14,499 nucleotides of DNA, from IMG/VR virus record IMGVR_UViG_2617270990_000006; one strand, given 5' to 3'. Made by a program: the position numbers and the translations under genes. This stretch comes from a virus. Taxonomy: Duplodnaviria; Heunggongvirae; Uroviricota; Caudoviricetes. The notes beneath the pieces were generated by a model. The model had not been told where the DNA came from, did not search any database, and saw only the letters and a program-made list of their open reading frames with translations. Positions 344 to 14,450 of the stretch are shown here, in pieces; position 1 is the stretch's first letter, and each line of letters starts with the position of its first letter.

Positions 344-419
344 TGGTGGCCCTTGCTGGATTTGAACCAGCGACCTGGCGATTATGAGTCGCTCGCTCTC
401 ACCACTGAGCTAAAGGGCC
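344..419 (-). tRNA. tRNA with anticodon CAU (Ile2/ileX-like, as in ileZ of lambdoid/Stx phages; Met not excluded)
   Basis: Reverse complement GGCCCTTTAGCTCAGTGGTGAGAGCGAGCGACTCATAATCGCCAGGTCGCTGGTTCAAATCCAGCAAGGGCCACCA folds as a 76-nt cloverleaf: 7-bp acceptor stem, GCTC/GAGC D-stem, loop CTCATAA, GCTGG/CCAGC T-stem with TTCAAAT loop, encoded CCA. Close to E. coli ileX as I recall it. Confidence 0.85.
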
Positions 420-468: not shown

Positions 469-1518
469 TCAAACGATTAAATCCTGAACTTCCCTGACTG
501 TCTGCTCAAAACGTCCGGTCTCCAGTTCAACGCCAATCGCACGACGCCCCAGTGCCATCGCCGCTTTTACCGTTGAACCCGACCCCATGAAAAAATCTGC
601 AACCAGGTCACCCGGACGACTGCTTGCGCTGATTATCTGCTGCAGCATTTCTGCCGGTTTTTCGCACGGATGTTTCCCGGGATAGAACTGCACCGGTTTA
701 TGTGTCCACACATCCGTGTACGGCACCTGCGCCGTCACACCAAAATACCGCCGCAGATGCTTATATTCACTCTGCAGCTCCACATACTGCCGGTTCAGTG
801 ACGTATACGTATCCACCAGCTGGTGGTGGGGCTTTTCCAGTTCACCGCGCTGATGTTTCTCTTCTGCCACCCGGGCAAACAGCGACTGTAATTTCAGATA
901 ATCGCTTTCGTTCGGTAGCTGCCACTGACTGGCACTGAACCAGTGCGACACCATGTTTTTCTTTCCTGTGACATCTGCAATCTGTTTTGCCGTTATCCCC
1001 AGGGCCGCGCGCGCATCACGAAAGTAAGAAATCAGCGGGGCCATCACATGCTGTTTCAGTGCACTGCCCTTCGCCGCATACCCGGCATCTTTCGGACGAT
1101 ACGGCCCCTGATAATGTTCCGCGAACAGAATGCGCTCTGTGGCGGGGAAATACGCCCGCAGGCTTTCCTTGTTGCATCCGTTCCAGCGTCCGGACGGCTT
1201 CGCCCAGATAATATGGTTCAGCACACTGAAGCGTTCACGCATCATGATTTCGATATCAGATGCCAGGCGATGACCACAGAACAGGTAAAGACTTCCGGCA
1301 GGTTTCAGCACCCGCCAGAACTGCGCCAGACACTGGTCCAGCCACTTCAGGTAATCATCGTCGCCCTTCCACTGGTTATCCCAGCCTTCAGGCTTCACTT
1401 TAAAGTACGGCGGGTCCGTGACTATCAGGTCAACAGAATTTTCGGGTAACGACCGGATAAATTCCAGGCAGTCGGCGTTGATTAACTCACAACTGGATAT
1501 TTTTACAGTATTAAGCAT
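469..1518 (-). CDS. DNA amino-methyltransferase, beta-class (N6-adenine likely, N4-cytosine possible); apparently orphan
   Basis: 349 aa with ATG start. DPPY (motif IV) lies near the N-terminus and FFMGSGST (motif I, FxGxG) near the C-terminus, the beta-class order, with a ~100-aa insert between them. No nuclease partner nearby. Confidence 0.8.
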   Translation of the reverse strand: MLNTVKISSCELINADCLEFIRSLPENSVDLIVTDPPYFKVKPEGWDNQWKGDDDYLKWLDQCLAQFWRVLKPAGSLYLFCGHRLASDIEIMMRERFSVLNHIIWAKPSGRWNGCNKESLRAYFPATERILFAEHYQGPYRPKDAGYAAKGSALKQHVMAPLISYFRDARAALGITAKQIADVTGKKNMVSHWFSASQWQLPNESDYLKLQSLFARVAEEKHQRGELEKPHHQLVDTYTSLNRQYVELQSEYKHLRRYFGVTAQVPYTDVWTHKPVQFYPGKHPCEKPAEMLQQIISASSRPGDLVADFFMGSGSTVKAAMALGRRAIGVELETGRFEQTVREVQDLIV

Positions 1519-3297: not shown

Positions 3298-4344
3298 TTA
3301 CCCAAGCACGCCAGTTGCAAAGGCGTGATCAAGAAAACGAAAAATTAAATCAACCTGAGAACCATGCTTTTCTTCGAACGCCAGAGGATCCGCATGAAGC
3401 TCGTTGTGATGCTCCCGACACAGCGGTAGCGTGAAAATATCGTGAGATTTTGTCCCCATTCCGCCCTGACCATGACCAATCAGGTGATGGGGATCGTCGG
3501 CTGGCTTACCACAACACGCACACGGCTGTGTCTTCACCCAGCGTGTGTATTTCTCGTTAACCCAGCGGCGACGTTTAGGTCGTTTCATGAAAGATTCCGG
3601 AGACTCAGGATCAACGGCAATGCTGACCACCGTCTCTTCCTGTGGCGGGTTTTGCTGGTGGGCGTGAGGCAGCGGCGCAAGATTTTTTGTGCGCTGCTTC
3701 AGTATGCTGGTGGCGGTCTGCTCTCCCGGTACGATGTCGCTTTCACGGTACATTGAGCGGATTTTTTCCGCACGCAACCCCAGCGAACGACGTAATACCG
3801 CTTCCGGTAGCGCGTCCGCCACCTGATTGCGGACCGCCCACCAGGATAATTCAGCCAGCGATAATTCCCGTTCCTGCGAGCCATTCATTGCATGGCGTAT
3901 GACGTCAATCATCCATGCAGACAGGTTTTGGTGAGCAAGTTGCCCGAGTGATTCGGAGGTCTGGTCGCGCAGCTGGTTGTCGCAGTGCCAGCACAACACC
4001 ATTGCGCCGGTACCATAACGGTGAATGACGGTTTCACTGTGGTGATAATCGCCGTGTGGCCACTGGCAGGATTTAACATGGCGCAGTAACCAGTCAGACA
4101 ATGCGCCAGCGCCACCAGCAGCACGAATCACTCGTTCGTCGCTGAAAAATGGCAGTAATGATTTATCCTCCGCCAGCGGCTGGCGAACGACAGGAACGAC
4201 CCCGGACGGCAGATTACGCATGCTTTTCGGTTCCGGCTCCACCAGTACCCGGGTATTGTGGAATACCGGCATGGATTCACGGCCCGGCTTAACGATCACC
4301 AGCCCGAGTTCCGGTACCAGAACAGGTCGAAGTAATACCCGCAC
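3298..4344 (-). CDS. DUF968-family phage protein (YdfU-like) with C-terminal HNH/zinc-finger-like motif
   Basis: 348 aa. GTG start at 4344 with a strong GGAGG SD 4 nt upstream, 1 nt after the stop of the preceding ORF. C-terminus CACCGKPADDPHHLIGHGQGGMGTKSHDIFTLPLCREHHNELH. Confidence 0.7.
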   Translation of the reverse strand: MRVLLRPVLVPELGLVIVKPGRESMPVFHNTRVLVEPEPKSMRNLPSGVVPVVRQPLAEDKSLLPFFSDERVIRAAGGAGALSDWLLRHVKSCQWPHGDYHHSETVIHRYGTGAMVLCWHCDNQLRDQTSESLGQLAHQNLSAWMIDVIRHAMNGSQERELSLAELSWWAVRNQVADALPEAVLRRSLGLRAEKIRSMYRESDIVPGEQTATSILKQRTKNLAPLPHAHQQNPPQEETVVSIAVDPESPESFMKRPKRRRWVNEKYTRWVKTQPCACCGKPADDPHHLIGHGQGGMGTKSHDIFTLPLCREHHNELHADPLAFEEKHGSQVDLIFRFLDHAFATGVLG

Positions 4345-4345
4345 G

Positions 4346-4624
4346 TTACCTCCAGATGCGTTGCTGGAATGTGCGGGACGGACGCGGTGGGCGTTCGGAA
4401 TAAGGGAGTCTGACGTAGATTATCCAGTGACGATAATCGAGGGTGAGGGCTTTCCTAAACTCATATCCACGTCTGCGGTAGTTATGAATCAGCCATTCGG
4501 CCTGTTCTTCAGTGCATGGGGGATGCTGGAACCAGTCAGATTTGAAAGTGCGGGAACGCCGCCCGTGCCTGCTGGCAAAGACGGCAGAATCATCAGAATT
4601 GTGTAATTTGGTATCGTGCGCCAT
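4346..4624 (-). CDS. Hypothetical protein (92 aa from ATG at 4624)
   Basis: The track start at 4705 is TTG and would overlap the upstream terminator, so the first ATG (MAHDTKL...) is preferred; SD weak. Arg-rich, no family recognised. Confidence 0.35.
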   Translation of the reverse strand: MAHDTKLHNSDDSAVFASRHGRRSRTFKSDWFQHPPCTEEQAEWLIHNYRRRGYEFRKALTLDYRHWIIYVRLPYSERPPRPSRTFQQRIWR

Positions 4625-4693
4625 CGGTTGTCTCTGCTGGCGCAGCAGGTGCCAGTTGTTCAGGCTGGCGTGTGGATTGTAAACCAGAATGCC

Positions 4694-4722
4694 AGGAAAA
4701 AACAAAACCCGCGAAGCGGGTT
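4694..4722 (-). terminator. Intrinsic terminator closing the R-M island
   Basis: Hairpin AACCCGC-GAA-GCGGGTT (4706-4722) followed on the minus strand by TTTGTTTTTTCC; about 70 bp past the endonuclease stop. Confidence 0.6.
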
Positions 4723-4794
4723 AGTAAAAATGTACTGAAGTCAATGACGTGCCATCACAGTTAAAATATGACAGACTCTATTTACGTAGAGATG

Positions 4795-5673
4795 TCAGAC
4801 TGCAAGATCCAAGGGAAGATCAGAAATATCCTTTAATCTTTTACCATTAACCATCACGGAAAGCATGTCAGCTGCATCGCTGAGCCCCAGTATTTCAACT
4901 GCTGATATAAGTTCATAAAGCGCAAAATGATACACGCAATCTATATCACCAGTACCAAGAGCAATAGACGCCAGACGACTTGGAGTAGGCTCAGCAGTAA
5001 CAACCATTACATGAGGGAGATTTCCCTTACGGTTGCGAATAAGATTTAATGCCTCAGAACGAGCATTCTGGGCCCGGTCGCTTCTTATTGTCCATTTGCA
5101 GGAAATACTTGCGTGTAATATTGGTTTCCCACCATTCGAACTCCTGAGAGCTGACATGCGGGTAACAGAATCATCCACCAGTAATTCAGGACTGTTGATA
5201 ACTTGATCACATTCAGGTTCTCTTTCAACAATAATATCTGGTGAAATCGTATAATCACTCCCCAGTGCAGCAGCTAGCTGAGGATTACTTTTTGCAGCAC
5301 TATCCAATGCTATAAGATGGGCATATTGTTCATATTTAGCTATCTCTAATCTGTTTCTACCAGAAACCTGATGTACATTCCATTTTCCAGGGCGTAAGTG
5401 GCTGAGTTTAAAAAAGGTTTTTTCTATAAACTCTGCGCAGATACTCTCAAACTGATTACCAGATGTTTGCCCTGCAACACGTTCACCAATCGTTTCAGCC
5501 TGCAAGAAGCGAGCAATTTCTCTTGCTATAGCTTTACTGTTTTTGTTACTGCTATCTGCGTTACTAACAACTCCGGCAGTATTAATTGTGAGCGTATTCA
5601 GTAACAATTGGGCATGAAACTCCTTTCTGGCTTCAGCAAAACCAACTATGCTGTCAACCAAATCTCCATTCAT
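4795..5673 (-). CDS. Type II restriction endonuclease, NgoMIV/Cfr10I/Bse634I-like (CCGG-core site predicted)
   Basis: Preferred start is the ATG at 5673 (AAGGAAA SD 9 nt upstream, 14 nt after the methyltransferase stop); the track ORF runs to 5808 with a TTG. Motifs SPDIIV ... SCK ... E with Asp-to-Lys 47 aa and Lys-to-Glu 14 aa, the spacing I recall for NgoMIV (Asp140/Lys187/Glu201). Confidence 0.7.
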   Translation of the reverse strand: MNGDLVDSIVGFAEARKEFHAQLLLNTLTINTAGVVSNADSSNKNSKAIAREIARFLQAETIGERVAGQTSGNQFESICAEFIEKTFFKLSHLRPGKWNVHQVSGRNRLEIAKYEQYAHLIALDSAAKSNPQLAAALGSDYTISPDIIVEREPECDQVINSPELLVDDSVTRMSALRSSNGGKPILHASISCKWTIRSDRAQNARSEALNLIRNRKGNLPHVMVVTAEPTPSRLASIALGTGDIDCVYHFALYELISAVEILGLSDAADMLSVMVNGKRLKDISDLPLDLAV

Positions 5674-5686
5674 TTCTGGATTTCCT

Positions 5687-6811
5687 TCAGGCTGCTTGAC
5701 TATTCTTACTGATGTTATTCTTATACCGTCCCTGCAAAACTCCATACACATATTGTGCGATTTTTGCCGCAAATAGCGGTGGAACAGCATTCCCGATCTG
5801 CTTTGCAATCTCAGTTTTTGAACCGGTAAAAATGAAATTATCAGGAAAAGACATTAATCTCGCTGCCTCACGATGAGTTATTGGCCGATCCTCTTCCGGA
5901 TGTAAATATCGCCCTTTCTCCGGTTTGAAAAACTCAGTACGAATCGTTACTGAAGGTCTGTCCCACCACAGACGTCCAAACAAATCGGTCCCTCCAGATT
6001 TCTTTTTTAGCCAGCACGCCGGGGTTATATCAGGTCTTTTTTTCTGTAAATCGAAACGGTTACCTCCTGGTGGAACCGCTTTATATCGCTCCAAAGAAAC
6101 AGGTGTGGGATTACGCCCAAAATGTAAGTTCAGCGGAGGAAGTTCATTACGAATATCAGTTCCAACAGGAGCAGGTAAGTCACCAATTGCATCACGCGTA
6201 CAGACCCATTCAGGCAAAGCGACATCCTTATCAGGGGAACGATGCGTTGGTGCTGGCGGGAACGCCGGAATACTATGCACATCGAAGAGTTCTCGTTTGA
6301 TACCGATTGCTATCGTTCGTTTTCTTGTCTGAGGTACTCCATAGTCAGCAGTATTCAACACCATTGGATTAAGCAGAATAAAGCCCATGGATTTCGCTCT
6401 AAACGTAATGTCCGCAAACTCATCGCTTATCAGCAATCCGGGGACATTTTCCATGACGAACATACAAGCCCTTGAACGCTCAATGACATCCATATAAGGC
6501 TCCCACAATGCTCTTCGGTGATCACCATAACGATTCTTATTTAATAAACTGAATCCCTGACACGGGGGGCCACCTATGACCACATCAGCCTCAGGAACAG
6601 TATTGCTGGATGCCCACTCCTCAATATTTGCCTGAACTCCATGCAAACCAAAATTGGCATTGTAGGTATTTATAGCTGCAGCATTATTATCAATAGCAAG
6701 GATACTTTCAAAGTAGTCAGACATCTCTCCATGAAGAAAACCATAAGATAATCCACCTGCCCCACAAAAGAGGTCTATCACTCTGAATTTATTTAATTCT
6801 TTCATCCGCAT
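5687..6811 (-). CDS. DNA (cytosine-5)-methyltransferase, cognate of the adjacent endonuclease
   Basis: 374 aa with C5-MTase motifs in order: FCGAGG (I), GGPPCQGFS (IV), ENV (VI), QTRKR (VIII), GNAVPP (X). Confidence 0.9.
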   Translation of the reverse strand: MRMKELNKFRVIDLFCGAGGLSYGFLHGEMSDYFESILAIDNNAAAINTYNANFGLHGVQANIEEWASSNTVPEADVVIGGPPCQGFSLLNKNRYGDHRRALWEPYMDVIERSRACMFVMENVPGLLISDEFADITFRAKSMGFILLNPMVLNTADYGVPQTRKRTIAIGIKRELFDVHSIPAFPPAPTHRSPDKDVALPEWVCTRDAIGDLPAPVGTDIRNELPPLNLHFGRNPTPVSLERYKAVPPGGNRFDLQKKRPDITPACWLKKKSGGTDLFGRLWWDRPSVTIRTEFFKPEKGRYLHPEEDRPITHREAARLMSFPDNFIFTGSKTEIAKQIGNAVPPLFAAKIAQYVYGVLQGRYKNNISKNSQAA

Positions 6812-6989
6812 CCATATGCCTCAGATTAATGTTGAGCGTCTTACAGGACGCGTAATGTTAACTGGGGCTTTCTCTATCTGCCTTTTGGTGTTCATGCCTG
6901 AGGCAGACAGCCTCAGGCACCCGCAGCAATTCTACTTAACTCACGTCACCTCGCCAATATGAAATCAATCAGAAAGGTGATCCATAAAA

Positions 6990-7676
6990 TCACTCCTTCT
7001 CTTCTTTTCCGTAGTGGAGTTGGCCAATTTTGATAAGAGGGCGTCCCTGAGATTTGCGGTGTAGATTGGTATCGCGCAGAGAATACACACAGCCACAATA
7101 TTCCTGCTGATAGAATTTTTCGCGCTTGCTGATTTCAATCATACGGGACGAGCCGCCCTGCTTGCGCCAGTTATAATCCCAGTACACCATACCCGGATAA
7201 TGCGCAACAGCTCGCCGCCCACACTCGTTAACCTGCTGCATATTTTTCCAGCGTGAAATGCCCAGTGAACTGCTGATCACACTGAAACCATTTTCAGCAG
7301 CGTACAACGCTGTCCGCTCAAAACGCATGTCAAAACACATGGTACAACGGATCCCCCTCTCAGGCTCCCATTCCATTCCTTTGGCACGTTCAAACCAGTT
7401 GTCGGTGTCGTAATCAGCATCGATAAACGGCACGCCGTGTTGTTCAGCAAAGCGAATATTTTCATCCTTACGAATTAAATACTCTTTCTGAGGATGAATG
7501 TTCGGGTTGTAGAAAAAGATGGTGTAGTCGATTCCCGAGGCCTGAAGCGCCTCCATCACTTCACCGGAACATGGAGCACAGCAAGAGTGCAGTAGTAGTT
7601 TGTTTGCCCCGTTTGGGAGTTCCAATTTAGGCCGTTTGAAATCAGCAATAGTCATAAATATTTTTATTGGGGTCAT
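6990..7676 (-). CDS. QueH-like protein (DUF208, epoxyqueuosine reductase family)
   Basis: 228 aa. N-terminal [13 protein letters not shown] and C-terminal YCGCVYS conserved Cys motifs as I recall for QueH/DUF208. AT-rich like the neighbouring R-M genes. No convincing SD at either candidate ATG (7676 or 7655). Confidence 0.7.
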
Positions 7677-7829
7677 GAAAATAGCACAGAGTGTAGCATC
7701 AGAGCAGGGCTATCGGGAATATATGTCTAAATCTGGTAATATCTGGTTTTGACGCAAAGCGGACAACCACGCTGGCTCTACCCTGCGCCATGAAAATGTC
7801 AATTCACATCTGAACTAATGCTCTTTAAT

Positions 7830-8225
7830 CTAGTAACGTCTAAAATACCTAACATTTCCTTGATAAAATGTCAGTACACGCTGCATAGCTTCGCTCTTCC
7901 GGCACTCGCGACAGATTATATTCAGGCGCCTGTCGTAGCGGCGTATTTCTCCGTCTGGTAACTTTCGAATCAGTGTCGGGTCAGCAGCCTTCTCCGGTGT
8001 CTTACGCCATACGCGATACGCCTGCTCTGATGGAAATACCCCGCAATCACAGAGCCAGACATCACCACTGGCCGCAAGCGCACCAGATAAACGACGAATA
8101 GCGGTCTTACTGACACCCGTTTTATCTGCCAGTTGTCGAAAAGTTTCTCGTCCGCTCAGGCGCACGAATTCCACAATGCGCGCCTTCACTTCTTCCCGCT
8201 CTTCTGGTGTAAATACTTTTGCCAT
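7830..8225 (-). CDS. Hypothetical protein with HTH-like segment and Cys pairs (131 aa from ATG at 8225)
   Basis: The track start at 8240 is TTG; the ATG at 8225 has GGAGG 5 nt upstream. LADKTGVSKTAIRRLSG is HTH-like; CDC ... CRECRK suggests a zinc ribbon. Confidence 0.5.
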   Translation of the reverse strand: MAKVFTPEEREEVKARIVEFVRLSGRETFRQLADKTGVSKTAIRRLSGALAASGDVWLCDCGVFPSEQAYRVWRKTPEKAADPTLIRKLPDGEIRRYDRRLNIICRECRKSEAMQRVLTFYQGNVRYFRRY

Positions 8226-8240
8226 AAGCGCCTCCGGCAA

Positions 8241-9011
8241 TCACTTTTCCGACACAATACGACCGGATGAATCGACAATCTGTCGAACAATATCCCGGTG
8301 CTTGTACAGCTCCCGCAGCGCGGCGCAGACTCGCTCCCACTTCTGAACCTGACCTTTTGCCCGGCGCAGCTCGCGGTTAGCCACATGCAGCGATGGTAAA
8401 ATCAGACCATCCGGATGTTTTCTGGTGAACGACGGCTGTGACTGCACTGTGACCGCCACACTTTCAGTTTTTATTTCTTCCTGTGTTTCCGCTTCCCGGA
8501 CAGGTAACGCAATACCTGCTGGCTGAGGAATGGCTTTACCATCCGTTTCCGCTACGGATGCAGCTTCCGGCTCTGCCGGTAAATCAGCGCCCGGTATGCA
8601 GTAACGAAATTTACCGTTCTGATTTACGCGTGCCAGGCGCCCCGTTGCTGTTACGACCGCCAACGTGGAAGCAACCTTGCGAATGCTAACACCGAACTTA
8701 TCCGCCAGTTCCTCACACGTTTTAGCCCCATCCTGACAGATAAACTCAATCATCATGTCCGCGGTAACTTTTTGTTCGACCTCCCCGGTCAGCATATCCT
8801 GTGCTTCAGATTTTACTGGCCGCTCTTCGGTTACCCGGGATTCACCTTCGCCAGCCAGAAACCAGGTGTGACCAGTTTTATCAACGACGCCATTTCTTTT
8901 GAGTTCCCACAGCTCGTTGACAGCCTCTTCACGACTGATTCCAAGGCGAGCTGCCACCACATGTGAAGAGGCTTTTTTCAGTGCTTTCAGTGCGTCAAAT
9001 ACGGTTTCCAT
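8241..9011 (-). CDS. Hypothetical protein with two winged-helix-like domains (256 aa from ATG at 9011)
   Basis: The track start at 9029 is TTG; the ATG at 9011 has GGAGG 8 nt upstream. Two HTH-like segments (AARLGISREEAVNELWELKRNG and EELADKFGVSIRKVASTL), an acidic linker and a basic C-terminus. Confidence 0.55.
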   Translation of the reverse strand: METVFDALKALKKASSHVVAARLGISREEAVNELWELKRNGVVDKTGHTWFLAGEGESRVTEERPVKSEAQDMLTGEVEQKVTADMMIEFICQDGAKTCEELADKFGVSIRKVASTLAVVTATGRLARVNQNGKFRYCIPGADLPAEPEAASVAETDGKAIPQPAGIALPVREAETQEEIKTESVAVTVQSQPSFTRKHPDGLILPSLHVANRELRRAKGQVQKWERVCAALRELYKHRDIVRQIVDSSGRIVSEK

Positions 9012-9044
9012 TAATATTTCCTCCGACAAAATCGTTTCTCAGAT

Positions 9045-9707
9045 TCAAATAAAACCAGCTGCCTTCCGGCGTTCGTATTCCTGTTTCAGCCGTTCAATTG
9101 GCGTTGGCCCTTGCGGGTGTTTCGCCCCTTCCAGTTGTCGTCGCACTGGCGGAACACTCATCCCGTTACCAACATGCTTTGCCCATTTCGTCAGTTGCCG
9201 TTCCGCAAGTCGTTTTAACTCACCCTGCGTCATCTGGCGCTCAATCCCTCTGGTACGCATTTCGAGGCAGATGTGGTACAGCACAGGCTGTGGCCACGGG
9301 TATTTATCACTCCCGTCGTATCGCCAGGATTCATTGCGCCAGCGCCGGTACTCTTCCATCACTGCATCCACCGTAAGACCAAATGGATTTGCCCCACTCT
9401 CCGAAATCAGTGCAACAAACTCAGCCAGGTCCGGGGGCCACGTTTCACCCGCCCGGCAGCGGTCCATGCACTGACGGCAGACCAGCCGGATTTGCTGTTC
9501 AGTCATCGCGCCAATCTGGGCAATCCAGAGCTTCGAAGGTGCGGCCCCGTTCTTCTGTGTCCAGCGGTTCGAATACACCTCCCCCATAAGCTCCCACAGC
9601 TTCCAGGCCGTTTCCGTTGCTGATAAATCCGTTGTCACGTTCCCACTGTTCGCGTGCTGCCCGGATTTCCTGAACTGCCCGTGATGCCGTGCCACCTGAT
9701 GCTGCAT
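9045..9707 (-). CDS. Replication protein P-like (helicase loader)
   Basis: 220 aa. ATG at 9707 with AAGGGGG SD 6 nt upstream. WPPDLAEFVALI, YPWPQPVLYHICL and MTQGELKRLAERQL resemble lambda P (PSPGQFVAWC, YPWKSNAHYWL, LTDAELRRKAADEL as recalled). Overlaps the O-like ORF by 209 nt out of frame. Confidence 0.6.
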   Translation of the reverse strand: MQHQVARHHGQFRKSGQHANSGNVTTDLSATETAWKLWELMGEVYSNRWTQKNGAAPSKLWIAQIGAMTEQQIRLVCRQCMDRCRAGETWPPDLAEFVALISESGANPFGLTVDAVMEEYRRWRNESWRYDGSDKYPWPQPVLYHICLEMRTRGIERQMTQGELKRLAERQLTKWAKHVGNGMSVPPVRRQLEGAKHPQGPTPIERLKQEYERRKAAGFI

Positions 9708-10515
9708 GGCTTACCCCCTTGCTGACTGGTTTTACCTGTGCCCTGACGTGCTGCACGTGGCGGGCAAATTTCTGCTCCCACTGAACCTGCGTGAAAACCT
9801 TCCCCTCCGCCATCCAGTAATCCCGGAATGCGGCAAGCTCTGCAGGTGTAAATTCCGGCTCAGGCAGAGCCATACCCCACACTGCTGCCCGTTGTCGAAA
9901 ATCCGACGACAGCTGCCAGACAGTAGTCATCGAAAATTTCCCGATCGGTTCGCTCAGGCCGTCCAGGTATTCAGGTTCGGCTGTCTGCAACGGCGCACCA
10001 TGCGACTCACCGGTTGGAGCACTCTCGCGCATGCGCGCGTTATGTGTGGGGTTTAATTCTGTATCTGTATCTTTATCTGTCGTGACTTGTCGTGACATGT
10101 GCGTGACATTTCGTGACGCGCCGTGACAATCGCCATTTTGTTCCCGCTTTCTTTCCCTCTCACGCTGCGCCCTCTTGCGCTCTGCCGGAGATTTTGCGGT
10201 TTGCGAAATATTGCCGTTGTCCTCTTTAAGCACCTGGCGTTTTTCCCATCCAGTGATTAAATCACCATCAAGTACCCGCCCCTGCATCGTCTGCAAAATT
10301 GAATCAATTACCTCTTCTGTCACGTCGAGCGCACTTGCCAAATCTTCTGTCGTGACATCAATGTGACCTCGCGTGACATTTCGTGACGCGCTCACCAGGA
10401 GGTGGATATACACTGCCATCACTGTTGCAATTGGCTGCCCTGACACCCTGGCAATTGTTCGCCACTTAGGGTCATTTGGCATGTCATGCCATAATCTGAG
10501 CCAGGCGTTAGCCAT
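9499..10515 (-). CDS. Replication initiator (O-like) with origin iterons inside the coding sequence
   Basis: 338 aa from the ATG at 10515 (AAGAGGTG SD); the track start at 10521 is GTG. Two clusters of phased CGTGAC repeats fall inside the gene and encode a repeated ASRNVT peptide. Sits between the cII-position gene and the P-like gene. Confidence 0.65.
   Translation of the reverse strand: MANAWLRLWHDMPNDPKWRTIARVSGQPIATVMAVYIHLLVSASRNVTRGHIDVTTEDLASALDVTEEVIDSILQTMQGRVLDGDLITGWEKRQVLKEDNGNISQTAKSPAERKRAQRERERKREQNGDCHGASRNVTHMSRQVTTDKDTDTELNPTHNARMRESAPTGESHGAPLQTAEPEYLDGLSEPIGKFSMTTVWQLSSDFRQRAAVWGMALPEPEFTPAELAAFRDYWMAEGKVFTQVQWEQKFARHVQHVRAQVKPVSKGVSHAASGGTASRAVQEIRAAREQWERDNGFISNGNGLEAVGAYGGGVFEPLDTEERGRTFEALDCPDWRDD
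10081..10127. repeat. Iteron cluster A: five CGTGAC repeats phased 10-11 bp (candidate ori)
   Basis: CGTGAC at 10081, 10091, 10102, 10112 and 10122. Preceded by an AT-rich stretch (10050-10080) and the palindrome CGCGCATGCGCG (10026-10037). Confidence 0.6.
10351..10391. repeat. Iteron cluster B: four (C/T)GTGAC repeats phased 10-11 bp
   Basis: Repeats at 10351, 10362 (TGTGAC), 10372 and 10382. The 21-mer GCGTGACATTTCGTGACGCGC at 10371-10391 is an exact copy of 10101-10121. Confidence 0.55.
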
Positions 10516-10586
10516 ACTCACCTCTTCTGATACCGAATCTTTTTACTCACGAGTTGCCGGAAGCGATTCGATATGGCTATTGTCAG

Positions 10587-11012
10587 TCAATGTACTGCCA
10601 CAGCATTTCCTGCCGGGCCACCACGGTTCATCTGATTGAAACCGGCGATTGCCACTGCGACAAAATCATCAGCGTCTCTCACCAGTCGCTCCCGCGTCTC
10701 CACCAGCTCCCGAAAATAAGCTGAACTGTGGCTGCGCATTCTGGCCACCAGCAAAGGTGGCATTGCCTTTTCGATCGCTGGTAACAACGCCTGAATTTTT
10801 TCAACTGCATCAGGGGTGTCTTTCTCTACCCAGCGGAAAATTTTCTGGGTATTACGGGCCAGGGCTTCCGGATGGCTGTCGTCGTACAGTTCCGGGAACG
10901 TCATCCCCAGTTCGAAATAAGTCCGGGCTATTTCAGCTGCTGGAACTTTCTCACCGTCTGGATACGCCCAGGCATTCATTGCCATGCGGATGTGTTCATG
11001 CTTGATTTTCAT
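10587..11012 (-). CDS. ydaT: cII-position regulator, YdaT-like
   Basis: 141 aa (E. coli YdaT is ~140 aa). ATG with GGGGGTGA SD; overlaps the cro-like gene by 17 nt. Assigned by position and length, not by remembered sequence. Confidence 0.5.
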   Translation of the reverse strand: MKIKHEHIRMAMNAWAYPDGEKVPAAEIARTYFELGMTFPELYDDSHPEALARNTQKIFRWVEKDTPDAVEKIQALLPAIEKAMPPLLVARMRSHSSAYFRELVETRERLVRDADDFVAVAIAGFNQMNRGGPAGNAVAVH

Positions 11013-11271
11013 GAATCACCCCCGCCTCTGGTTGTGTGTTAGCCTGATACTCGACAGGTAAGCCGTCGGTTGGGTTGGGATAAGTACTGCCATCAATCTC
11101 GTGCGGAGTTACTATCCAGCCTGTTGCTTCGCACCAGCGTAAAATTTTTTTCCCCGTAAGTTTCGCCCGTCCGGTAATGACATGGCTTACCATCCCTTGG
11201 GTTACCCCAACAATTTCAGCAAAATGCTTCTGAGTTATACCGGAATGATGCAAATATTCTCCAAGATTCAT
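10996..11271 (-). CDS. ydaS: Cro-like HTH regulator (YdaS-like)
   Basis: 91 aa. ATG with GAGGTG SD. HTH segment GITQKHFAEIVGVTQGMVSHVITGR. Divergent from the repressor gene across the operator region. Confidence 0.6.
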   Translation of the reverse strand: MNLGEYLHHSGITQKHFAEIVGVTQGMVSHVITGRAKLTGKKILRWCEATGWIVTPHEIDGSTYPNPTDGLPVEYQANTQPEAGVIHENQA

Positions 11272-11283
11272 TGTTCACCTCAT

Positions 11284-11345
11284 GTGATGTCATCACGATC
11301 ATTAATAGCATTGTTATTTTTAAAAGTAAATAGCATCACTATTTC
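11284..11345. promoter_or_regulatory. OR-like operator/promoter region between cro-like and repressor genes
   Basis: Two AATAG-N5-CTATT-type sites (11304-11318 with one mismatch, 11331-11345) 27 bp apart, plus a 13-bp palindrome GTGATGTCATCAC (11284-11296). Candidate minus-strand promoter TTTACT-N17-TATTAA (plus 11325-11330 and 11302-11307) overlaps the sites. Confidence 0.55.
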
Positions 11346-11378
11346 AAAGAGATTAATAATCTTATTAGAATTGAAGGT

Positions 11379-11879
11379 ATGAAAAGAAAATCCCTGTCAG
11401 AGATCGACCTGCAAGCCGCCCAGAGACTGAAAGAAATCTGGACGGCGAAAAAAAATCAACTAGGGTTAACCCAAGAGCGTGCGGCAGAAATTCTGGGATT
11501 TTCGACACAGGGAGCTGTAAGCCATTATCTAAATGGTCAGACACCTTTAAATCTTGAGGCTGTTATCAAGTTCGCAGGGTTGCTGCAAGTTCCTCCCGAG
11601 TCAATCAGACCAGATATGGCCGAGTTGTTACAAATTGTAAGGATGTATCCCCAAGAATCTGGGGAGGACAATGTTGTCACTATATCTGCAGATATGGAAC
11701 AATCGGAAAACGAACTTCCGTTTAATATAGACCCCATGGAGCGGGATTTGCTCCAGACGTTCAGGGCTTTCCCCAAAGAAGATAAAGAGAAAATGCTTAA
11801 GGAAATGAAGGAGAAAAAAGAATCAATTGAAGAAATCGTTGCGCGATGGCTAGCTGCGCAAAAGGGTCGTCGCGCCTAA
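11379..11879 (+). CDS. paaR: Prophage repressor, HTH-XRE type without a LexA-like cleavage domain (PaaR-like)
   Basis: 166 aa. HTH LGLTQERAAEILGFSTQGAVSHYLNGQ. C-terminus is acidic/Lys-rich with no Ala-Gly or Ser/Lys peptidase motifs. First gene of a three-gene operon in the cI position. Confidence 0.7.
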   Translation: MKRKSLSEIDLQAAQRLKEIWTAKKNQLGLTQERAAEILGFSTQGAVSHYLNGQTPLNLEAVIKFAGLLQVPPESIRPDMAELLQIVRMYPQESGEDNVVTISADMEQSENELPFNIDPMERDLLQTFRAFPKEDKEKMLKEMKEKKESIEEIVARWLAAQKGRRA

Positions 11880-11896
11880 TCTGAGGAGGTAAAAAC

Positions 11897-12088
11897 ATGA
11901 GTACAGCCCTTTCCCCGATAATTTCTGAATTTGAAACAGTCGAACAAGAAAACAGCTATAACGAATGGTTGCGAACCAAAGTGGCAGCAAGCCTCTCAGA
12001 TCCCCGTCCTGCAATTCCACATGACGAAGTAATGGCTGAAATGGAAAACCTTATTGCTCAATTAGCTGCAACGAACAGGAGTGAGTAA
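11897..12088 (+). CDS. paaA: Antitoxin of the ParE toxin (PaaA-like)
   Basis: 63 aa. GAGGAGG SD 7 nt upstream. Stop overlaps the toxin start (TAATG). Length and context match the PaaA2 antitoxin of the paaR2-paaA2-parE2 system as recalled. Confidence 0.65.
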   Translation: MSTALSPIISEFETVEQENSYNEWLRTKVAASLSDPRPAIPHDEVMAEMENLIAQLAATNRSE

Positions 12089-12378
12089 TGCTGCCCATTT
12101 TATGGCTACCTTCTGCACGTGATGATTTACGTCAGATCGTAGCCTATATTGCTAAGGAAAACCCTCCCGCTGCACGTAGACTAAAAATACGCATTGAAAC
12201 ATCAGTTTTGTCACTTACTGAACACCCTTATCTGTACCCACCGAGCGAAAGAGTTCCAAGTCTTCGTGAGATAGTGACTCATCCTAACTACATAATACTT
12301 TACCGAGTAACAGCATCTAACATCGAGATCGTAAATGTAGTTCACTCACGAAGACAGTATCCAAACAAAACCTGTTAA
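12088..12378 (+). CDS. parE: ParE/RelE-superfamily toxin
   Basis: 96 aa. ParE-like pattern: WLPSARDDLRQIVAYIAKENPPAARRL ... LREIVTHPNYIILYRV ... IEIVNVVHSRR. AGGAG SD; coupled to the antitoxin. Confidence 0.85.
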   Translation: MLPILWLPSARDDLRQIVAYIAKENPPAARRLKIRIETSVLSLTEHPYLYPPSERVPSLREIVTHPNYIILYRVTASNIEIVNVVHSRRQYPNKTC

Positions 12379-12392
12379 TCCTTCCTGTCAAC

Positions 12393-12417
12393 AACCACCT
12401 TCGGGTGGTTTTTTTCT
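12393..12417 (+). terminator. Intrinsic terminator after parE
   Basis: Hairpin AACCACC-TTCG-GGTGGTT followed by TTTTTTTC. Confidence 0.7.
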
Positions 12418-12426
12418 TGCCACGAT

Positions 12427-12468
12427 AATAGCACTGCTATTTACATAATTAAATAGTAGTGGTATTGT
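12427..12468 (+). promoter_or_regulatory. OL/PL-like operator-promoter for the early-left operon
   Basis: AATAGCACTGCTATT (12427-12441, perfect palindrome) and AATAGTAGTGGTATT (12452-12466), the same AATAG-N5-CTATT motif as at OR. They overlap a candidate promoter TTTACA (12440-12445), 17-nt spacer, TATTGT (12463-12468). Confidence 0.5.
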
Positions 12469-12647
12469 TCATTCATCAACCCACCCCGCCCCACAGAACG
12501 CCAGGCAATACTTCGAGTTACCCGGCAGTGGTCAGGGGTTAAGTAGCCAGCCCGAGGCGTATGAACATGACGGCGGGAACACTTTATATAACAGCGCAGC
12601 AGTTTTTTAGTTCCGCTACCCCGGCGTTAAGGGGAAATGAGGTCAGC

Positions 12648-13236: not shown

Positions 13237-14127
13237 TCAGGCTGCCAGATCATCGTTTCCGATGGAAGCATAATAAGCTTTTTCTGCTTCTGCCGGAGGA
13301 GTATGGCCCAGCCTTCCCAGCAATCGTCGATTGTTATACCAGTCCACCCACGTTAGTGTGGCCAGTTCCACTTCTGCACGGTTTTTCCAGCTCTTACGGT
13401 GTATTACCTCCGCTTTGTAAAGACCATTGATGCTCTCAGCCATCGCGTTGTCATACGAGTCGCCTGTACTCCCTGTTGATGCCAGTAATCCGGCTTCTTT
13501 TAGTCGCTCCGTATAGGCCAGTGACACATACTGAGAGCCTTTATCGCTGTGATGGATGGTGCCAGACGGACGACGGGCCCACAACGCCTGCTCCAGCGCA
13601 TCCAGCACGAATGTCGTTTCCATAGACGATGAGACCCGCCACCCCACGATGTATCCGGCAAACACATCAATGATAAACGCCACATAGACGAAGCCCTGCC
13701 ATGTGCTGACGTAAGTAAAATCAGCCACCCACAGCTGGTCAGGTCGTTCTGCCACGAACTGACGGTTTACGCGGTCGCCTGCGGCAACGGCTTTCCGGCT
13801 GATGGTCGTACGGACCTTTTTACCCCGGAGAACACCGGCAAGTCCCATAACCGCCATGAGACGTGCCACTGTACATCTGGCCACCCTGATTCCTTCCCGT
13901 AACAACTGACGCCAGACTTTACGCACACCGTACACCTGATGATTTTCATCGTATACGCGCTGTATCTCTCTCTTCAGCCAGTCGTCGTGCTGCGCACGGG
14001 CACTGCGTTTATCCGGATGATGTCGCTGTTGCTGACAATGGTAATACGTTGACGGGGCAATATGCAGTTCGCTGCATACCGGTCCGACCCCGTACTGCTC
14101 ACGCAGCTTATCCAGCAGTGGCATCAT
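13237..14127 (-). CDS. IS3-family transposase OrfB (integrase core, DDE)
   Basis: 296 aa matching IS629 OrfB as recalled ([16 protein letters not shown] ...). DDE residues in [17 protein letters not shown] and [15 protein letters not shown] overlap with orfA. Confidence 0.9.
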
Positions 14128-14450
14128 TTTTTCCAGAGGCGGTCGAACTCCGCCTTCGCAAAATAAGCGGAAGCCTGGCGAAGGATATCGTTACTGCGGC
14201 GCAGTTCACGATTTTCACGTTCCAGCTCTTTCAGACGCTGACGTTCAGCGCTGGTGAGCCCACCATCACCGCCCCCGGTATCCCGCTCATGCTGGCGAAC
14301 CCAGACACGCAGAGTCTCCGGCGTACAGCCAATCTTTGGGGCAATGGAACAAATTGCCGCCCACTGTGAGTCATATTCATCCTGACTTTCCAGAACCATA
14401 CGAATCGCCCGCTGACGGACTTCGGGGGAAAAACGAGTATTTTTAGTCAT
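14124..14450 (-). CDS. IS3-family transposase OrfA (HTH/leucine-zipper part)
   Basis: 108 aa, [51 protein letters not shown] ..., matching IS629/IS1203 OrfA as recalled. A-rich run GGAAAAAATGA at the orfA/orfB junction suits -1 frameshifting. Confidence 0.9.

Follow-up and report, generated by a model that had tools for sequence, protein, structure and literature searches.

A predicted NgoMIV-like restriction-modification cassette in the hokD/sok locus of an Escherichia coli lambdoid prophage

The DNA analyzed here (the window; IMG/VR record IMGVR_UViG_2617270990_000006, 14,499 nucleotides) is part of an Escherichia coli lambdoid (lambda-like) prophage of the Qin/Rac type, with most of its genes on the minus strand. 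Between the replication genes (DnaT-like O, P, DUF1627, and DUF977) and the DUF968-RusA-Q block lies a cargo slot which, read along the minus strand, contains queH, the 5' end of a hok/sok locus, a C5 DNA methyltransferase (M), an endonuclease of the NgoMIV family (R), and an intrinsic terminator (Table 1). A first-pass annotation had described the stretch from queH through the endonuclease as one AT-rich cargo unit of about 3 kb, acquired independently and inserted at this position. The position and the three gene calls held (Pfam E-values of 1e-65 for QueH, 4e-54 for the methylase, and 6e-127 for the endonuclease), and the slot does contain horizontally exchanged cargo, but in the form of two modules, one of which appears to be a replacement. 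We consider it likely that this is a lambdoid accessory slot with two exchanged modules, in which a foreign restriction-modification (R-M) cassette replaced the toxin-coding core of hokD/sok and kept its shell.

Table 1 Features of the prophage window, starting with the cargo slot.
Feature	Position	Strand	Basis or remark
Accessory module B, R-M cassette, 2094 bp	4724-6817	-	BLAST breakpoints against strain M24
Retained hok promoter TTGGCG-17-TAGAAT	6957-6929	-	Promoter scan 9/12; predicted start at about 6922
5' part (about 105 nt) of hokD mRNA leader	6922-6818	-	Rfam RF01794
C5 DNA methyltransferase (M)	5687-6811	-	Pfam DNA_methylase
NgoMIV-family endonuclease (R)	4795-5673	-	Pfam NgoMIV_restric
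Intrinsic terminator (predicted)	4722-4694	-	Hairpin and T tract
Gap between queH and M, 178 bp			5' end of hok/sok locus
Accessory module A, queH and 153-bp upstream gap	6943-7847 (about)	-	Delimited by BLAST against locus L005
queH	6990-7676	-	Pfam QueH
Gap upstream of queH, 153 bp	7677-7829	-
DUF977 gene	7830-8240	-	Pfam DUF977 2e-38; right border of cargo slot
Left border backbone	3298-4624	-	Small hypothetical gene and DUF968, then RusA and Q
Small hypothetical ORF	4346-4624	-
DUF968 (ydfU-like) gene	3298-4344	-	Pfam DUF968 1e-77
RusA and antiterminator Q genes	Beyond DUF968	-	Pfam RusA 3e-17; Pfam Antiterm Q 2e-49
DUF1627 gene	8241-9029	-
Lambda-P-like gene	9045-9707	-
DnaT-domain O-like gene	9499-10521	-
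HTH regulator (166 aa), PaaA2, and ParE	11379-12378	+	PaaA2 1e-21; ParE 7e-18
cro-like and YdaT-like genes			After the HTH regulator and PaaA2-ParE in the order listed
N6/N4 DNA methylase gene	469-1518	-	Late-regulatory region
tRNA, anticodon CAU	344-419	-	Directly downstream of the N6/N4 methylase gene

The R protein matched the Pfam family NgoMIV_restric (PF09015) over 275 of 275 positions and was 66% identical to NgoMIV (PDB 1FIU) over 282 columns (1e-118). PADLOC recognized it as REase_II (8e-126) and matched M to MTase_II; NCBIfam offered no equivalog for R or for QueH. Residues D34, E70, D140, S185-C186-K187, R191, D193, R194, E201, and R227 of R were identical to those of NgoMIV. The roles of these residues in NgoMIV were reportedly described by Deibert and colleagues in 2000, and from that structure we take D140, K187, and E201 to be catalytic, as in the pattern PD...(S/T)xK...E, and R191-D193-R194, D34, and R227 to serve the recognition of GCCGGC, presumably through an R-x-D-R motif for CCGG and contacts with the outer G:C pairs. 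Because R is 66% identical to NgoMIV and keeps these presumed catalytic and recognition residues, its site is predicted to be G^CCGGC. NgoMIV itself belongs to type IIF: it acts as a tetramer, requires two sites, and cleaves G^CCGGC (PMC4081073).

M matched the C5 DNA_methylase family of Pfam and the dcm model TIGR00675 (5e-45), and motifs I, IV, VI, VIII, and X (FCGAGG, PPCQGFS, ENV, QTRKR, and GNAVPP) were all present. The M gene precedes the R gene in the same orientation, with a spacer of 13 nt; both open reading frames were intact, and no pseudogene flags were found in the related loci L002 to L004. A more distant relative, L126, keeps the M-R pair, with M 77% and R 84% identical. At the level of sequence, the pair passes the tests for an NgoMIV-type R and a C5 methylase, and it is predicted to be an active type II R-M system. 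RefSeq already names the two products "DNA cytosine methyltransferase" and "NgoMIV family type II restriction endonuclease".

The junctions of the cassette were located by comparison with strain M24, whose prophage carries QueH and hokD and lacks the R-M genes. Window positions 3597-4723 and 6818-7962 were 95.5% and 98.9% identical to M24, respectively. Between these flanks, M24 contains 287 bp with hokD and no R-M genes, whereas the window contains 2094 bp with M and R. Alignment with related prophages, which the first-pass annotation had proposed as a check on the insert, thus revealed the same junctions without R-M, and with hokD in its place. The arrangement reads as a replacement of the hokD segment, not as a simple insertion. 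A probe made of the joined flanks found both of them around hokD within about 0.7 kb in 216 genomes, and some part of the probe matched in 4161 genomes. Junctions in further loci were checked by alignment and pattern search.

On the upstream side, the cassette appears to have kept the beginning of the hok/sok locus. Both hexamers of the hok promoter and the 5' stem-loop were conserved in five loci with differing upstream and downstream DNA. The match to the Rfam model RF01794 scored 61 bits (gathering score, 59) and set in at 6922, immediately behind the promoter; the alignment was convincing for about the first 88 model positions alone, as far as 6818, and down to that position the leader was 98.9% identical to the hokD locus of M24. 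The retained leader includes the 5' stem-loop, the complement of the Sok terminator hairpin, and the mok Shine-Dalgarno sequence GAGG, and homology to hokD ends right after the latter, between AATCTGAGGC and ATATGG. The segment replaced here comprised the mok and hok reading frames, the sok promoter, and the 3' fbi element. Among the features that define a hok/sok locus, the promoter and the 5' leader with its stem-loop were present, and a Hok open reading frame with overlapping mok, the sok antisense promoter, and the Sok 5' tail were absent; judged by these features, the locus is a shell alone, from which the toxin and the sok promoter are gone. A substitute antisense promoter of the Sok kind was considered and rejected, as the promoter scan found no plus-strand promoter-like site opposite the M start at 6700-6900.

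The upstream breakpoint lies close to the start of M. Two other carriers of the cassette were informative here: strain A34, which has R-M with the hok leader and the terminator but without QueH, and the IMG/VR locus L111, which has R-M and the terminator on another lambdoid backbone, with neither QueH nor the hok leader. The codon at 6811 is ATG in the window, GTG in A34, and GCG in L111, whose homology begins only at GCGGATGAAAG, so the conserved start of M is probably the ATG at 6805. The mok Shine-Dalgarno sequence lies 7 nt before the ATG at 6811 and 13 nt upstream of that at 6805, and this distance from the conserved start weakened the idea that the mok signal drives translation of M.

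On the downstream side, the predicted terminator consists of a 7-bp stem with five G-C pairs (AACCCGC-TTC-GCGGGTT, 4722-4706), followed by TTTTGTTTTTT, with UUUUGUUUUUU as its T/U tract. The hairpin begins 72 nt after the R stop codon and has a folding energy of -10.1 kcal/mol (z = -3.3 versus shuffles). By these features, 4722-4694 qualifies as an intrinsic (Rho-independent) terminator that is predicted to stop transcription, in agreement with the first-pass annotation. The hairpin is not, however, the private end of an island, since the same hairpin ends hokD loci that have no R-M genes. Homology to these loci resumes exactly at the hairpin, where the window reads AACCCGCTTCGCGGGTT and the hokD loci read AACCCG(C/G)TTCGGCGGGTT, and continues into the small open reading frame and DUF968. 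The same hairpin was present in all three contexts of the cassette; in A34 and L111, it also follows R-M, and the sequences diverge beyond it. It is more parsimonious to regard this element as the hokD terminator, which would also have served as the 3' recombination joint of the cassette. The simplest reading of both junctions has the cassette settling in a hok locus, where it retained the promoter, leader, and terminator, and afterwards spreading together with parts of this shell.

Alternatively, the terminator, and perhaps the leader, may have belonged to the cassette earlier. On this view, the cassette took shape in a hok-type shell outside this prophage, perhaps that of a plasmid or of a different phage, and homologous recombination via shared hok sequences, instead of illegitimate replacement of hokD here, brought it in. 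Such a history would suit the constancy of the terminator, which accompanies near-identical R-M copies in three flanking contexts, one of them without the hok leader, and also the finding that A34 shares leader, R-M, and terminator (window 4704-6934) as a single block and that the hok leader lies at the same distance from R in 25 of 26 near-identical IMG/VR loci. However, L126, the relative with 84% identity, lacks both this terminator and the leader, and the same two elements surround hokD in thousands of E. coli genomes. The search for a donor also speaks against earlier assembly elsewhere. Plasmids yielded only relatives at about 66% DNA identity, deposited phage genomes contained no copy of the R-M part, and a scan of genome contigs found R relatives at most 78% identical, all in high-GC Proteobacteria and others, this being the nearest level of identity outside E. 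coli. In IMG/VR, R-M relatives at 83-85% occurred in other contexts. We regard assembly elsewhere as unlikely and retain replacement within the hok locus as the preferred account.

The two modules of the slot differ greatly in distribution. Of 5426 complete E. coli genomes, 60 contained the R-M cassette, 59 of them in a copy at least 99% identical, and the carriers include O157:H7, O111, O103, and O39 strains. The queH gene with its upstream gap was found in 1032 of the 5426 (19%; 984 of these at a coverage of at least 80%), including E. coli B REL606, so that QueH is 17 times commoner than R-M. QueH occurs without R-M in strain M24 and in the isolated temperate phage HannyBb, and R-M occurs without QueH in A34 and L111. 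Because each is found without the other, and in such different numbers of genomes, QueH and R-M are two separate, nested modules that are exchanged independently. In one genome, that of strain JKHS016 (H28, NZ_CP147059.1), window 4300-8300 matched at 100% in two pieces across 5.1 kb; an IS5-family transposase lies inside and represents a secondary insertion sequence (IS) insertion in the same cargo slot.

These counts bear directly on the proposal that QueH, M, and R form one unit of about 3.1 kb, acquired in a single event, with a promoter of its own in 7677-7829 and a terminator of its own at 4694-4722. In favor of this, the three genes are neighbors with the same orientation, the average GC content of the stretch is low, the coverage of 4300-8300, queH included, reaches at least 80% in 57 of the 60 genomes with R-M, and no terminator was found between QueH and M, which would permit co-transcription by read-through. 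Against a single unit stand the 17-fold difference in frequency, the presence of QueH and hokD without R-M in M24 at 98.9% flank identity, and the R-M copies of A34 and L111, which lack QueH. A complete hok promoter and leader separate QueH from M, and no deletion scars were seen in relatives that lack one of the components. The postulated promoter fared no better. The perfect TTGACA noted in the upstream gap on the minus strand is there (7802-7797), and, as had been noted, it has no convincing -10 element, the hexamers 16-18 nt downstream being TAGAGC, AGAGCC, and GAGCCA; the promoter scan of 7677-7829 found no site of 9/12 or better, just weak promoter-like sites (8/12). The promoter relevant to M and R would instead be that of hok. 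We consider acquisition as a single unit highly improbable.

Base composition supported the same division. The GC content of 4694-7829 was 0.439, compared with 0.521 in the left flank and 0.532 in the right flank, so the stretch is AT-rich as first described, but the drop was uneven. Among all 2094-bp windows of the sequence, the GC minimum fell at 4721-6814 (0.426), which is the M-R pair. The GC content at third codon positions (GC3) was 0.300 for R and 0.365 for M, whereas queH, with a GC content of 0.473, had a backbone-like GC3 of 0.515 (z = +0.1) against a mean of 0.503 in 16 other genes. Relative synonymous codon usage (RSCU) correlated with that of the pooled backbone genes at 0.11 for R, 0.14 for M, and 0.37 for QueH; the backbone genes gave r = 0.63-0.88, but these genes belong to the pool with which they were compared. 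The proposed check of GC and codon usage therefore set M and R apart and gave a divided answer for QueH, backbone-like in GC3 and deviating in codon usage. The compositional island measures 2.1 kb (M and R, 4724-6817), not 3.1 kb. Low GC is not unique to this region, as a second stretch, 11000-12500 (GC 0.432), is as AT-rich.

The cassette is most likely a defense and addiction module that is expressed in the lysogen and functionally replaces hok/sok. We propose the following scheme. A foreign, low-GC type II operon, M then R, would have replaced the toxin-coding core of the resident hokD/sok locus. In the lysogen, the retained hok promoter would be constitutive and would transcribe leader, M, and R, and the hok terminator would stop this transcript before DUF968-RusA-Q. 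Termination at this point would matter, since Q made at the wrong time would turn on the late genes. M would methylate a cytosine in GCCGGC, or in a site containing it, and so protect the DNA of host and prophage, and R, as a tetrameric type IIF enzyme, would cut incoming unmethylated DNA with such sites and thereby defend the lysogen against superinfection. Just as in other type II systems, loss of the prophage would expose unprotected sites to residual R, and this would make the cassette an addiction module that takes over the stabilizing role of hok/sok. Because there is no terminator between QueH and M, read-through from the early operon could also yield a QueH-M-R transcript upon induction. 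More speculatively, the structured leader that was retained may dampen translation of M.

That the pair is not an active defense system was weighed as well. R could be silent or inactive, with M acting as an orphan or epigenetic methylase or in self-protection of the phage, or expression could be restricted to the lytic phase through read-through of the early operon. The weak ribosome-binding site of M would be in keeping with this, as would the predicted structure of the leader. The fold predicted from the single sequence of the retained leader with the M start (6795-6922) has a minimum free energy of -41.6 kcal/mol (z = -3.1). Within it, the leader segment ACGCGUCC is base-paired to the stretch around the M start codons, GGAUGCGGAUG; on a speculative view, this could occlude initiation of M translation. 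The depletion of GCCGGC whether or not R-M is present points the same way. On the other side, both open reading frames are full length with all presumed catalytic residues conserved, the loci inspected had no pseudogene flags, M before R with a 13-nt spacer is the usual layout of active type II systems, and 59 of the 60 copies are at least 99% identical over the unrelated serotypes O157, O111, O103, and O39. We judge an inactive or lytic-only pair to be distinctly unlikely, and expression of an active pair in the lysogen remains our preferred reading.

Avoidance of GCCGGC was considered as a sign of R activity and rejected. The window contains no GCCGGC site against 4.05 expected under a maximal-order Markov model (Poisson p of about 0.02). 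Relatives without R-M are equally depleted, with 1 site against 4.1 in M24, 0 against 2.8 in L005, and 0 against 1.5 in HannyBb, and because of this the avoidance is uninformative on the activity of R; it is general and is not caused by the cassette.

Several points weigh against the account given here. M was 22% identical to the methylase encoded beside R.NgoMIV in Neisseria gonorrhoeae (L147, 3358-4296), with 374 aa compared with 312 aa for the Neisseria partner. The endonuclease lineage thus appears to have changed its methylase partner, and because the identity is so low, we infer the specificity of M from its conserved pairing with R alone. The ATG at 6805 lacks a good ribosome-binding site. 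For the hok promoter, the support is a 9/12 consensus match and conservation, and its start site is putative. The terminator accompanies R-M in L111, a context that lacks the hok leader, so a hok origin is no more than the more parsimonious reading. Finally, given its RSCU correlation of 0.37, QueH is probably not ancestral backbone either.

The borders of the QueH module followed from a comparison with the related locus L005, in which window 6818-6942 matched, then 7848-9031, with 931 bp containing DUF551 and a small open reading frame in between; the gap upstream of queH moves together with the gene in relatives. QueH matched the Pfam family PF02677 (DUF208) over 174 of 175 profile positions (1.1e-65), its cysteine motifs CCAPC, CTMC, and CGC were all present, and RefSeq sets its start 7 codons further in. 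The protein was 95% identical to one of phage HannyBb (L007, 4628-5314), which is annotated there as hypothetical. By family, QueH is a cobalamin-independent epoxyqueuosine reductase, with this activity predicted. Such an activity of QueH (DUF208) was reportedly established by Zallot and colleagues in 2017. In the tRNA of the host, the prophage enzyme should convert epoxyqueuosine to queuosine with no need for cobalamin, as expected from the function of the family (PMC5372724), and would complement the B12-dependent QueG of the host, a plausible lysogenic-conversion trait. Both PMC5372724 and PMC6884629 cite the QueH work of Zallot et al. (2017); in the latter, Hutinet et al. (2019) found no QueA, QueG, or QueH homologs in the viruses that they analyzed. 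No DpdA or Tgt gene that would suggest DNA modification was found near queH, and the literature consulted contained nothing specific on prophage QueH.

Elsewhere in the window, the two DNA methylases of the prophage, M and the N6/N4 enzyme, belong to different classes. The tRNA next to the latter is a Met tRNA according to ARAGORN, and its M24 homolog is an Ile tRNA according to RefSeq. The trio at 11379-12378 resembles the three-gene paaR2-paaA2-parE2 toxin-antitoxin module of O157 prophages; its HTH open reading frame, at first taken for cI, may be a PaaR2-type regulator, and the trio sits within the second AT-rich stretch. An IS3-family insertion sequence with orfA and orfB occupies 13237-14450 on the minus strand, with its ALIL frameshift pseudoknot at 14053-14169 (Rfam, 121.5 bits).

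DUF977 is the last conserved backbone gene before the slot and is kept beside differing cargo genes in relatives, where DUF551, an alpha/beta hydrolase, DUF5677, DUF7167, and QueH with Kiwa were found in the same slot. In the prophage of strain 103 (L006, 3578-5624), a complete Kiwa system (KwaA, 1e-101; KwaB, 3e-159) follows closely behind QueH and is framed by two copies of the hok promoter and leader, the second of which is cut off at the hok ATG by an ISNCY remnant; the breakpoint in the leader differs from that of the R-M cassette. This is a hint that defense cargo repeatedly settles in the hok locus, two defense cassettes (R-M and Kiwa) having been documented in the slot outside any systematic survey. 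A wider idea, possible but one that we hold with considerable reserve, is that the hok/sok locus of Qin/Rac-like prophages serves as a reusable expression shell for defense cargo, in which toxin, R-M, and Kiwa are swapped, expression takes place in the lysogen, Q is insulated, and the leader perhaps throttles translation of M and R, and that QueH, separately, is a lysogenic-conversion trait for cobalamin-independent queuosine maturation in the 19% of genomes that have it. The promoter with the 5' leader and the terminator may then act as conserved recombination joints.

All components belong to known families and the genes already have names in RefSeq; R-M is an ordinary kind of phage cargo, here with tidy junctions, and current concepts are unchanged. 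What the analysis adds is the exact module boundaries of a prophage cargo slot and a natural example in which one addiction or defense module (R-M) appears to have displaced another (hok/sok) with promoter and terminator kept. The literature consulted contained nothing specific on this E. coli prophage R-M system, on GCCGGC methylation in E. coli, or on R-M replacing hokD. The carriers are prophages of Shiga-toxin-associated serogroups, such as O157:H7, O111, and O103, and if the system is active, a GCCGGC barrier would affect phage and plasmid uptake and the 5mC methylomes of those strains. The boundaries should thus be useful for annotation and for the study of restriction barriers in STEC prophages.

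Compared with known systems, the closest counterpart of the cassette is the NgoMIV R-M system of N. gonorrhoeae, with which it shares an endonuclease 66% identical over its full length, the presumed catalytic and recognition residues, and the order of a C5 methylase followed by R; it differs in having a C5 methyltransferase of another lineage and in residing in a lambdoid prophage with a GC3 of 0.30-0.37 rather than in the Neisseria chromosome. With the hokD(relF)/sok locus of Qin-type prophages, it shares the prophage position, promoter, +1 site, first 105 nt or so of the leader, and terminator, and both would be expected to act as post-segregational killing modules. The cassette, however, lacks the hok and mok frames, the sok promoter, and fbi, and it would kill by cleaving DNA, whereas hokD/sok damages the membrane. 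QueH resembles known QueH (DUF208) proteins in its full-length Pfam match and its cysteine motifs, but it is carried by temperate phages and prophages whose host already has QueG.

The slot as a whole recalls the morons and nin-region accessory genes of lambdoid phages, for which Hendrix, Juhala, and colleagues are said to have put forward a model of mosaic exchange. Like lambdoid morons, the cargo deviates in composition, is flanked by a promoter and a terminator, is patchy among close phages, and lies between conserved modules; here, however, the displaced hok locus appears to be the source of both promoter and terminator, and the cargo would be a replacement, not an addition. Prophage defense hotspots are established for P2-like phages and P4-like satellites (Rousset et al., 2022, PMC9122126; Vassallo et al., 2022, PMC9519451). 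The present slot is like them in its fixed prophage position and its alternating defense systems, R-M here and Kiwa in strain 103, and differs in belonging to a lambdoid family and in having the hok promoter/leader and terminator as its putative joints.

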